The translations under genes were made by a program, and so were the position numbers. This document shows positions 49,566 to 51,500 of a stretch of 64,000 nt of DNA, piece after piece. Below the pieces are notes generated by a model that had not been told where the DNA came from, searched no databases, and saw only the letters and a list, made by a program, of their open reading frames with translations. The DNA is from Chthoniobacterales bacterium (GTDB lineage Bacteria > Verrucomicrobiota > Verrucomicrobiia > Chthoniobacterales > UBA6821): assembly GCA_019747895.1 (NCBI GenBank), contig JAIEQF010000013.1:67104-131103 (forward strand). Reading direction: 5' to 3'. How positions within the stretch are numbered: the first letter of the stretch is position 1; each line of letters opens with the position of its first letter.

Positions 49566-51500
49566 ATGGGTAAGATTCATCTTTTAAGTGATATTGTCGC
49601 AAACCAAGTGGCTGCTGGAGAGGTCGTGGAGCGGCCTGCTTCGGTGCTCAAGGAGCTTGTCGAAAATAGCATCGATGCCGGCGCAAAGAAAATCCTCGTT
49701 GAATTTAACGGAGGGGGCGTTGAATTGTTGCGTATCACCGATGATGGCTCTGGGATGGATCGTTCCGATGCGTTGCTTTCGCTCGAACGTCATGCTACCA
49801 GCAAAATTCGGACGATTCACGATTTGGCCTTAGTGAATACCCTCGGATTTCGCGGAGAGGCCTTGCCGAGTATTGCGAGCGTTTCTCGTTTCAAACTCAT
49901 CACGCGCCAGCAGAACCTGCCTTCAAAGTCTACTGACGCTGCGAATAACGGCGTCGCGCCGGTGCTCGCGTCATCGAGCATTAGCGATACACTCAGCCGC
50001 TGTGTGCCAGCGGCTCCTTGTTCTTCATCAGCCTCAGCGACTTTGAAAACAGTTTCTAAAGAAGAAAGTCTTTTCGGCACTCAGATCAAGGTGGAAGGCG
50101 GAAAAGTCCTTGAAGTTAAAGAAAGTGGCGAGGCTCCTGGCACAAAAATCGAGGTGAGGGATCTTTTTTATAATGTTCCTGCACGCCGCAAATTTCTCAA
50201 AGGTGAACAGACCGAAGCCGCACACTTGATGGCGCAATTGCAGTTCTTAGCAGTGGCGCATCCAGAGATCGCATGGACTTGTGTGCGTGATGGAAAAGAA
50301 ATTTTTCGGCTGGGAGCCACTGAGAGCCTTGCGGTGAGGCTCAGCGATCTTTACGGCTCTCCTTTTCTCAAGCGGATGAAAGAAGTGTCGCCGTTAGAAG
50401 TTGAGGGAATAGTGGTGCGAGGATTTTTTGCACGACCTGGAGAAGGGCGTTCCGATCGTTCTCATCAATTGCTTTTTGTAAACGGACGCATCATTCGCAA
50501 TAACCTTTTGTCTCAAGCCTTGAGAGAAGCTTGCGATGGGATTTTACCAAAAGGCCTTCATCCTCCTGCTGTTCTCTTTTTTGAACTCGATCCCGCCAAG
50601 CTCGACTGCAACGTGCATCCAGCAAAGAGAGAGATTCGTTTTCAAGAACCAGCGAAGGTCAAGGCAGCTGCTTTGAGGGCAGCTGCGAGTGTGATGGGGA
50701 ATTTTGAACAAGCAGCGACAGGGATTCCTCCGTTGCAAGAGATTGCTCGGGCATATCAAGTACACCGGAGAGAATATCCGACAGAACTTTTTTCTGAAAG
50801 AAATGCCCTCGTCGAAGAAAAATTTGAACGTGATAGAGCGCCGCAGGAAGTAAAATTTCAAGTACAAGAGGAGATCATAGAAAAAATTCCCTTTCGTTAT
50901 ATAGGATCTCTAGCGCAGCGTTATTTGCTCCTCGAAGAAGATGGGGGGCTTGTTCTGTTGGAGATTAGTGGAGCGCTCGAACGAATCACTTACGATGCTC
51001 TTTATCAGACGCTCTTGGGAGGGTCTTTGCAGCGTCAACCGCTCCTGCTGCCACAAGTTGTTGAGCTTTCTCCTGCGGAATCTTCTTGGATCATGGCTCA
51101 TCAACAACTATTAGAAAAAGCAGGCGTTGAAGTGGAACTTTTTGGGGAAGAGACGAGAGGTTCGGTCTCTCAGAGTCTCAAAGTCGATGCTGTTCCTGTC
51201 ATCGCAGCTCAAGTTTCAGTGACCACGCTGCTGCAACAACTCGTTCACGATTTTCAACAAGAGGAATCGAAAAGTTCGCTCAAAGAAGGGAAGAGAGTTC
51301 TTGCTGTTGAAGAGACCTTGGCACGTTCTGTGAGTGGTATGGTGGCTCAAGCAAAAAAATTACCGGAAGGGGAAGTCGCAGCCGTGATGCTTGTTCGAGA
51401 TCTTCTGCGCTGCTCACTTCCTTACTCGACTCCTTCAGGAAAACCGACGATGATCCAACTTTCGCAAACCGAGTTGCGTCGAAAATTTAGAGCAAGCTAA
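49566..51500 (+). CDS. mutL: DNA mismatch repair protein MutL with a 48-aa PE1 insert in the ATPase domain
   Basis: AAGEVVERPASVLKELVENSIDAG, DDGSGM, GFRGEAL, DLFYNVPARRKFL, DCNVHPAKRE. Confidence 0.96.
   Translation: MGKIHLLSDIVANQVAAGEVVERPASVLKELVENSIDAGAKKILVEFNGGGVELLRITDDGSGMDRSDALLSLERHATSKIRTIHDLALVNTLGFRGEALPSIASVSRFKLITRQQNLPSKSTDAANNGVAPVLASSSISDTLSRCVPAAPCSSSASATLKTVSKEESLFGTQIKVEGGKVLEVKESGEAPGTKIEVRDLFYNVPARRKFLKGEQTEAAHLMAQLQFLAVAHPEIAWTCVRDGKEIFRLGATESLAVRLSDLYGSPFLKRMKEVSPLEVEGIVVRGFFARPGEGRSDRSHQLLFVNGRIIRNNLLSQALREACDGILPKGLHPPAVLFFELDPAKLDCNVHPAKREIRFQEPAKVKAAALRAAASVMGNFEQAATGIPPLQEIARAYQVHRREYPTELFSERNALVEEKFERDRAPQEVKFQVQEEIIEKIPFRYIGSLAQRYLLLEEDGGLVLLEISGALERITYDALYQTLLGGSLQRQPLLLPQVVELSPAESSWIMAHQQLLEKAGVEVELFGEETRGSVSQSLKVDAVPVIAAQVSVTTLLQQLVHDFQQEESKSSLKEGKRVLAVEETLARSVSGMVAQAKKLPEGEVAAVMLVRDLLRCSLPYSTPSGKPTMIQLSQTELRRKFRAS
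49912..50057. mobile_element. PE1 copy G (146 bp), in frame in mutL
   Basis: Ends agaacctgccttcaaagtc / gactttgaaaacagtttct; deleting 49914-50057 restores ITRQQ-KEESLFGTQIKVEGG. Confidence 0.94.

Follow-up and report, generated by a model that had tools for sequence, protein, structure and literature searches.

A palindromic, probably IS1031-mobilised element lies in frame within mutL of an uncultured Verrucomicrobiota bacterium

Introduction

Palindromic elements that sit in frame inside protein-coding genes have so far been regarded as peculiar to Rickettsia, in which the Rickettsia palindromic elements RPE-1 to RPE-10 were described (Ogata et al. 2000, 2002, as summarised in PMC10969869 and PMC1779305) and in which it is not known how they move. 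According to these summaries, RPEs are palindromes of 100–150 bp, intergenic as well as coding, which enter unrelated housekeeping genes in frame and encode a family-specific peptide, and which have proliferated in a lineage-specific manner, leaving presence/absence differences between related genomes. A 2024 review only speculates on RPE-like events in other prokaryotes (PMC10969869). Here we describe a family of palindromes with the same properties, PE1, starting from a copy that interrupts the mutL gene in 64,000 nucleotides of Chthoniobacterales bacterium DNA (GenBank assembly GCA_019747895.1, contig JAIEQF010000013.1, positions 67,104–131,103; the whole of this stretch is hereafter called the window). 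The host, a bacterium of the Verrucomicrobiota that has not been cultured, has its nearest MutL proteins in metagenome-assembled genomes (MAGs) labelled Verrucomicrobiia, Chthoniobacter or Chthoniobacterales.

PE1 differs from the RPEs in that its hosts are all freshwater Verrucomicrobiota (Chthoniobacterales-like) MAGs and not Rickettsiales, and in that it has transposon-type termini and an apparent 3-bp duplication pointing to an insertion sequence (IS) family. It also has a long form with an 81-nucleotide internal module and an orientation bias tied to GC skew, and its intragenic fraction of approximately 70% at least equals the “nearly half” given for RPEs in those papers. The RPEs may be regarded as the closest functional analogue of PE1, without PE1 being counted among them, set apart as it is by host phylum and by its IS-type ends; kinship in sequence is not expected either.

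Three other groups of elements invite comparison. With IS5-family elements of the IS1031 group, exemplified by ISLrh (PMC12016507), PE1 shares the start of the inverted repeat (GAACCTGTCT) and apparently also the preference for TNA and a 3-bp repeat (TGA in both ISLrh and the PE1 copy L047_2232); unlike them it measures only 144 or 225 nucleotides, has no transposase gene, is palindromic throughout and, in its subfamily A, displays AGACC termini and apparent ANT duplications. With QMITE1/2 of Coxiella and the ERIC, BOX and Correia elements it has in common that all are small, non-autonomous, bear terminal inverted repeats (TIRs) and contain open reading frames (ORFs), some of them as in-frame fusions (PMC5896051, PMC10969869), but in-frame copies of those elements are exceptional and often lie at gene ends or in hypothetical genes, whereas those of PE1 are the majority and split catalytic domains. 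Finally, the IS200/IS605 and REP/BIME-RAYT systems likewise combine hairpin-forming DNA with a replication-related orientation bias (PMC5027513, PMC3333891); they have subterminal hairpins and a left-flank target of 4–5 nucleotides and produce no duplication, in contrast to the full-length TIR symmetry and the 3-bp duplication signal of PE1. No description of a PE1-like family in Verrucomicrobiota was found in the limited literature searched.

We argue below that the mutL stretch quite probably represents the recent insertion of a non-autonomous palindromic element, a MITE (miniature inverted-repeat transposable element), most likely mobilised by the IS1031 group and tolerated by its host. What is new is a PE1 family in a new phylum, which is notable for hitting the same loops repeatedly, for an architecture compatible with codons and for its bias with respect to the replication strand. 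In-frame palindromes here attain a frequency within genes comparable to or higher than that in Rickettsia, in an unrelated clade sampled from freshwater, drinking-water and wastewater metagenomes, and the 48-codon core, the apparent 3-bp duplication and the IS1031-like ends suggest how such an element works. PE1 thereby provides a tractable system of selfish DNA that adds loops to essential proteins, with permissive sites and a strand-following orientation, while the mutL insertion is a natural loop-insertion experiment beside the MutS-binding sheet. On the practical side, PE1 inserts lengthen genes and split domain matches in these MAGs, whose short-read assemblies they break.

Results and Discussion

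A PE1 copy in the ATPase domain of MutL

The ORF at 49566–51500 (forward strand) encodes an intact MutL of 644 amino acids with the Pfam domains HATPase_c_3, DNA_mis_repair and MutL_C, and its HMMER match to the E. coli LN40 fragment (E=3e-65) is split exactly at the insert. As originally predicted from the nucleotide sequence, the segment at 49912–50057 (forward strand) is a PE1 copy inside the ATPase domain of a Pfam-confirmed MutL, being recognised as a member of the family by nhmmer (E=1e-40). The translation around it reads ...GFRGEALPSIASVSRFKLITRQQ-NLPSKSTDAANNGVAPVLASSSISDTLSRCVPAAPCSSSASATLKTVS-KEESLFGTQIKVEGG, in agreement with the placement first given for the peptide, between ...FKLITRQQ and KEESLFGTQIKVEGG. 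The best-supported core comprises 144 nucleotides (49913–50056; conceptual translation NLPSKSTDAANNGVAPVLASSSISDTLSRCVPAAPCSSSASATLKTVS(K)) flanked by GCA (49910–49912) and TAA (50057–50059). It begins with the left TIR, GAACCTGCCTTCAAAGTCTACTG (49913–49935, forward strand), which pairs in the fold with the right TIR, CAGCGACTTTGAAAACAGTTTC (50034–50056, forward strand), the latter identified from fold and covariation. Two details of the initial description need to be adjusted. First, its figure of 48 residues is right for the core, which has 48 codons, and wrong for the gain, which in comparable filled/empty pairs is 147 nucleotides, or 49 amino acids. Second, the insert does lie downstream of the GFRGEAL motif, and the “just after” used for its distance from the lid amounts to 15 residues, one β-strand further on.

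The copy belongs to subfamily B and has the AG...CT ends that had already been noticed in place of TA. The same termini, AGAACCTG...CAGGTTCT, occur in the copies L047_2232, L032_4379 and L008_6365, and we could rule out that AG/CT is a decayed TA since ends common to at least four other copies are a trait of the subfamily.

The filled mutL allele is real and no artefact of assembly. Contigs from X1, X2 and X3, three independent runs on drinking-water metagenomes, cross both of its junctions with zero differences. One might suspect a chimera, in which assembly from a repeat placed PE1 in mutL, because PE1 is multi-copy and the read depth is approximately 8-fold higher inside the copy than around it; yet these contigs span the 5′ and the 3′ junction at 100% identity, the copy is at least 9% different from every other one found, and the frame is perfectly kept, so that the chance of a chimera is practically negligible.

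The mutL site is empty, by nucleotide alignment, in L006, L001, L002, L003 and L005, that is, in related loci which we number L001–L067. The nearest MutL orthologue (P0001, encoded in L006) is 95% identical to the window protein outside the gap and reads FKLITRQQDMEAGTQIKVEGG at the site. Among 108 MutL homologues with recognisable anchors, the anchor-to-anchor segment measures 15–21 residues in 106, and it is long only in the window MutL (65 residues) and in P0013 (68 residues). The observation named at the outset as fatal to the idea of an insert, an equally long loop in relatives lacking PE1, was thus not made: the only other long loop, that of P0013, contains a PE1 copy of its own in the same turn. 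P0013 is 64% identical to the window protein, and its empty sister P0015, approximately 95% identical to it over the N-terminal domain, differs from it by a clean block of 49 residues. A third MutL, P0016, carries a PE1 copy in the interdomain linker. The reverse situation is found in the gene downstream of mutL (ORF 51566–52186), which in L006 is filled in frame with a 228-nucleotide long form and in the window retains an empty target site, TCA/AAT (51961–51966, forward strand; junction 51963/51964), between near-identical flanks. PE1 has been mobile recently, as these presence/absence differences between close genomes attest, and the mutL insertion, judged from the alignments, is recent and lineage-specific.

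Repeated hits in the same loops

The MutL turn is not the only place that PE1 has reached more than once. At the ffh site, the window is filled with a copy of subfamily A and the orthologues L051 and L052 are empty, while the Ffh gene of L067 (from the K_DeepCast MAG) has an independent copy (L067:2480–2608) of a different subfamily only a few nucleotides from the window site. In MutL, the window copy is 91% identical to L047_2232, which resides at an unrelated locus, and 78% identical to the P0013 copy, which is itself 80% identical to L047_2232; the two insertion points are approximately 5 codons apart, and every lineage between the window and P0013 is empty. We take the two mutL copies to be separate events for these three reasons, namely their identities to a copy from an unrelated locus, the offset and the empty intermediates.

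Such double hits could conceivably also reflect a preference for particular target sites, or a single insertion in an ancestor that was later lost precisely many times. Both mutL copies do belong to subfamily B and have equal orientation and frame, their mutual identity exceeds that of their flanks (69%), and the two ffh insertion points nearly coincide. However, the mutL copies are closer, or equally close, to L047_2232 than to one another, and their insertion points do not coincide. The ffh copies are of different subfamilies and only 63% identical between flanks that are approximately 87% identical. Moreover, common ancestry would demand at least five independent precise excisions, and no shared target motif is visible beyond TNA/ANT. 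We therefore consider target preference or ancestry an unlikely source of the double hits, and separate insertions remain our preferred explanation for them.

What is conserved in PE1, and how it keeps the frame

The mutL copy folds into one long hairpin, with a free energy of −34.8 kcal/mol as DNA (z=−5.0) and −59.9 kcal/mol as RNA (z=−4.8). Over 26 copies, compensatory double changes occur at 27 of 40 stem pairs, and helix 1 (columns 1–20 with 132–150) is 90% paired with 15 of its 17 pairs compensatory. Paired cells make up 91.5% of the total, compared with 76% in shuffles (none of 500 reaches the observed value) and 35–50% when the partners are slid, and the covariation score is 0.43 versus 0.16. 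What is conserved is the palindrome and not a peptide. The forward peptide (..NST.DA..GVAPVLASSSI..TLSRCAP.AP.SS..) and the reverse one (RPLSKLA.GDE.QGA..QRLSV..LDDASTGATQ.FASAVEF..RS) are unrelated to each other, and each is found inside proteins. The family comprises 47 copies over the window and the related Verrucomicrobiota loci, in a short form of 146 nucleotides and a long form of 227 with 81 extra internal nucleotides (cores of 144 and 225 nucleotides, respectively). No PE1 was found outside this group of Verrucomicrobiota in a profile-confirmed 20-mer scan of the genomes of 185,579 species.

Twenty of 28 full-length copies (approximately 70%) lie inside ORFs of more than 200 amino acids, 13 co-oriented with the gene and seven opposite to it. 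The co-oriented copies all use one and the same reading frame, the opposite ones all use one other, and these two are the frames of PE1 that are consistently free of stops; of the short intragenic copies, 17 of 18 measure exactly 146 nucleotides between their outermost paired bases. The mutL copy shares its frame, as first noted, and also its orientation, with the copies in ffh (17353–17499) and in the GH31 gene (61405–61631). Conserved domains are split in all three cases: the GHKL domain of MutL, the SRP54 GTPase domain of Ffh and the GH31 barrel. An exhaustive HMMER search located the forward-frame peptide within 54 representatives of protein clusters that belong to unrelated enzyme families, among them prephenate dehydrogenase, dehydroquinase, AddB-like nucleases, a subtilase and a GT9 enzyme; this figure is a minimum, since filled proteins mostly cluster with their empty orthologues. 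The search superseded a word-index census of hosts with the peptide profile, which had returned 69 candidates and two tiny matches. One of the hosts, the 925-amino acid AddB-like PD-(D/E)XK nuclease P0126, contains at least two full PE1 peptides (residues 242–289 and approximately 575–625) and an apparent remnant of a third (…CSSSASATMNIGSETGSK…).

These observations can be accommodated in a simple model. A core of 48 codons (or the 225-nucleotide long core) plus a 3-bp target duplication would always yield a net gain that is a multiple of three, and for this reason the downstream frame would be kept at every insertion. With one stop-free frame per orientation, approximately one third of genic insertions would be expected to give a full-length protein carrying an additional Ser/Ala-rich peptide. 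Purifying selection would then clear the damaging insertions, and the survivors would be found mainly at permissive loops of the protein surface. The mutL copy lies in a β-hairpin turn of the GHKL ATPase domain, with predicted fold, ATP-binding motifs and constraint left intact.

Alternatively, the insert might never persist in the protein, if it were removed from the RNA in the manner of an intron or from the polypeptide in the manner of an intein, so that MutL would be wild-type. The very stable RNA hairpin is a conceivable substrate for processing. However, excision would make the strict frame and stop-free rule obeyed by approximately 20 intragenic copies needless, no Rfam match, to group I/II introns or otherwise, was obtained anywhere in the window, Pfam finds no Hint/intein domain in MutL, and the peptide has no intein junction residues. 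Removal of this kind strikes us as barely credible, and a retained insert remains the reading on which we proceed.

Termini and the link to IS1031

PE1 has the features of a MITE: it is small, lacks a transposase ORF, has TIRs, occurs in dispersed copies and shows insertion polymorphism in four filled/empty pairs. For termini and flanks, the related-locus data consist of 8-kb loci. Perfect 3-nucleotide direct repeats flank the core in six of 26 copies (ATT three times, AAT, AGT and TGA), compared with 1.6 in shuffled flanks (P=0.002), while the 2- and 4-nucleotide registers give one and no perfect repeat, respectively. In subfamily A (core AGACC...GGTCT) the repeats follow the pattern ANT, and in subfamily B (core GAACC...GGTTC) the pattern TNA. 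Among B-type flanks, TGA/TGA is perfect in L047_2232, and TNA is present on at least one side of the copies in the window mutL, L008, L032 and L006. The net gains in three filled/empty pairs (147, 147 and 228 nucleotides) fit a core of 144 or 225 nucleotides plus 3 bp. Duplication of a TA target, as in IS630/Tc1-like elements, to which the TA...TA ends of subfamily A had pointed, was rejected: it predicts a gain of 144 nucleotides, and the repeats are 3 nucleotides long.

ISLrh, an IS5-family element of the IS1031 group, has the terminal repeat GAACCTGTCTAGTATCT, and elements of this group prefer a TNA target and make exclusively a 3-bp repeat (PMC12016507). Subfamily B cores begin with GAACCTGYCT, and against this single literature comparator the first seven nucleotides of the mutL copy (GAACCTG) match the ISLrh inverted repeat, as do ten out of ten in the sister copy L032. 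From this resemblance of ends, target and repeat, PE1 is most likely a MITE of the IS5/IS1031 type, probably mobilised in trans by a DDE transposase of the IS1031 group of the IS5 family.

Orientation follows the G-rich strand

Of 46 PE1 copies, 40 are oriented with the forward strand on the G-rich strand of the locus (binomial p=3e-7, or 7e-6 without the window), and the sign of the orientation flips with the GC skew across loci L001–L067 and the window, in which eight of the nine PE1 copies are on the + strand. This bias is stronger than that relative to the direction of the host gene, and it is no artefact of composition, the forward strand being rich in C. It may stem from biased insertion or from selection after insertion. 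A replication-linked orientation bias is typical of the single-strand transposition of IS200/IS605 (PMC5027513) and has also been reported for certain IS5 subgroups with transposases that bind to the β clamp (PMC3971601). The bias, together with the absence of an obvious duplication in the L006 pair, suggested transposition of the IS200/IS605 type, but this is not supported: PE1 has no conserved left-flank tetranucleotide and has symmetrical TIRs and IS1031-like ends. That type of transposition further predicts better folding of the G-rich strand, and this prediction failed, the folds of the complementary strand being slightly better in 23 of 28 copies.

Consequences for MutL

When mapped by alignment onto E. 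coli MutL LN40, as the original prediction had proposed, the insertion site falls in the turn at residues 114–119 (TAEQQE, native numbering). In an AlphaFold2 model built from an alignment of 71 sequences, the strands on either side (residues 108–114 and 171–177) are confident, with a predicted local distance difference test score (pLDDT) of approximately 87, and residues 119–167 are unstructured (pLDDT approximately 25). According to Foldseek, the predicted N-terminal domain superimposes on that of B. subtilis with a template modelling (TM) score of 0.92 and a root-mean-square deviation of 2.5 Å; for E. coli MutL·AMPPNP the TM score is 0.89. The insert is thus predicted to be a disordered excursion of approximately 49 residues at a β-hairpin turn of an otherwise intact ATPase fold. 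The family-invariant ATPase residues are all kept, including the GHKL motifs I–IV by which a MutL is recognised (E30, N34, D59xGxG and GFRGEAL).

The ratio of nonsynonymous to synonymous substitution rates (dN/dS) between the window gene and that of L006 is 0.096 (0.055 for the ATPase domain), that between two insert-free orthologues is 0.102, and a three-taxon split assigns approximately 0.098 to the window branch and approximately 0.093 to the insert-free sister branch; such pairwise values average over far more time than has passed since the insertion, so that a recent loss of function would leave no trace in them. Nothing shows that mutL was broken by PE1, and MutL with the insert would, as far as its sequence indicates, stay active. 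The insertion is best read as a tolerated, neutral to slightly deleterious passenger and not as an adaptation.

Could the insert nonetheless perturb MutL, be it in its docking to MutS or in N-terminal dimerisation, and so produce hypomorphic repair, with more mutation, slippage or homeologous recombination favouring repeats, PE1 among them? In E. coli, the face of this β-sheet forms interface 1 with MutS, and mutations on it (A138E or R55D/R57D) eliminate repair (PMC4521584). The insert leaves the A-B turn of the β-meander 108–114/171–177/180–187/192–198, at the edge of the interface 1 sheet, and intragenic repeats are unusually numerous in the genome. On the other side, the constraint on mutL is unchanged between window and sister branch, invariant residues and predicted fold are preserved, the insert, being predicted to be disordered, could swing away, and the lineage of P0013 keeps an independent insertion in the same turn of an otherwise conserved gene. 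Furthermore, PE1 is about as dense in close relatives whose mutL site is empty, which indicates that the repeat load does not depend on the mutL insertion. A perturbed MutL is for these reasons improbable, and altered mismatch repair, the effect originally suggested, is possible but unsupported. More doubtful still is the far-reaching proposal that PE1 is the first RPE-like system beyond Rickettsiales, of a traceable IS5/IS1031 type, protein-compatible and strand-biased, which recolonises the loops of MutL and Ffh and, by tuning mismatch repair or anti-recombination, feeds its own spread.

Our preferred reading, that of a recent and tolerated insertion of an IS1031-type MITE, has to be weighed against several observations that do not sit easily with it. 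As for tolerance, besides the averaging inherent in the dN/dS values, the insert is presumed, from the sequence of the gene, to be present in mRNA and protein. In addition, topology suggests that the A-B turn with the insert and the C-D turn (A138/H139) share one end of the sheet; the insert would thus be near the MutS-docking patch defined in E. coli and may not be harmless. As for the mechanism of insertion, the mutL copy itself has no recognisable 3-bp duplication (GCA...TAA, with one match in three positions), and the one nucleotide-resolved pair, involving the L006 copy, is likewise without a perfect repeat (TCA...TTC). The 8-kb loci yielded no transposase gene bounded by ends like those of PE1, and a permissive regular-expression scan of them for solitary termini returned only noise. 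Finally, the orientation bias is unlike the standard expectation for a cut-and-paste MITE of the DDE type.

The repair partner was also looked for. No mutS is present within the window, whose only ORFs of at least 700 amino acids encode a SulP-carbonic anhydrase fusion, a product of 796 amino acids without Pfam match and the GH31 enzyme. The C-terminal domain of the window MutL (50880–51497) lacks the motifs that define the endonuclease subclass (the type of B. subtilis and of eukaryotic PMS), namely DQHA(X)2E(X)4E, ACR/SCK and C(P/N)HGRP: compared with B. subtilis (3GAB), DQHAAQERIKYE is replaced by EISGALERITYD, SCK by SVS and CPHGRP by TPSGKP. By consensus, the MutL of the whole clade is likewise without the motifs of the endonuclease metal site. 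NCBI names the relatives “mismatch repair endonuclease MutL” despite the missing motifs.

Other PE1 copies and repeats in the window

Altogether, iterated nhmmer detected nine full PE1 copies and one fragment in the window (E-values 1e-15 to 1e-40), equivalent to approximately one copy per 7 kb and 2.4% of the DNA. Two copies besides that of mutL are in frame within conserved genes on the same strand. The first (17353–17499, forward strand; subfamily A, TA...TA ends) is flanked by a perfect AGT/AGT 3-bp direct repeat and splits the SRP54 GTPase domain of ffh (16875–18368). The second (61405–61631, forward strand), a long form of 227 nucleotides with CA...TG ends, splits the TIM-barrel domain of the GH31 gene (60519–62939), whose orthologue in L006 has 729 amino acids compared with 806 in the window, a comparison of length only.

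Four further copies overlap ORFs. That at 48449–48595 (forward strand) runs opposite to its host ORF (47331–49106, reverse strand) in the other open frame and represents an older insertion shared with L006 and L001. Its host is a Pro/Ala-rich protein of 591 amino acids without Pfam match, and the dN/dS of the element, approximately 0.65 on few sites compared with 0.27 for the whole gene, fits a weak constraint on the peptide. The only minus-strand copy (28475–28701), again of the long form and detected by nhmmer, is in the first 80 codons of a HAD-hydrolase ORF (28465–29160). Two others, both on the forward strand and likewise found by nhmmer, occupy codons 12–60 of a GT2 ORF (copy 1902–2048; ORF 1207–2082, reverse strand) and, in diverged form, codons 12–58 of a cyclase ORF (copy 2777–2920; ORF 2095–2952, reverse strand). 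These last three copies precede the first Pfam domain of their ORFs, use the reverse open frame and have an ATG upstream; each may be an N-terminal extension or part of a 5′ leader.

The remaining matches to the nhmmer profile, all on the forward strand, lie at gene ends or between genes. One copy (22966–23112) abuts the 3′ end of the nucleotidyl-transferase ORF 22201–22968, whose stop codon TAA (22966–22968) is supplied by the element in its first three bases. A decayed intergenic copy (63189–63333) has stops in all frames, and the fragment, from the 5′ part of the element (8684–8730), is located directly after the stop of ORF 6484–8685.

The window also contains repeats other than PE1. A second family (…AATTAACCGCAAAGARCGCAAAGAA…) is intergenic and forms inverted pairs around spacers of 20–450 nucleotides; it may be a MITE or consist of bidirectional terminators. 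Its members are at 669–726, 1169–1221, 14923–14969, 41724–41780, 41862–41914, 43385–43435, 43508–43555, 47146–47214, 47280–47330, 60352–60408 and 60431–60507. Two pairs of direct repeats are unrelated to PE1: 54655–54822 and 55087–55254, each of 168 nucleotides, are 96% identical and 432 nucleotides apart, and 23176–23306 and 38718–38848, each of 131 nucleotides, are 73% identical.

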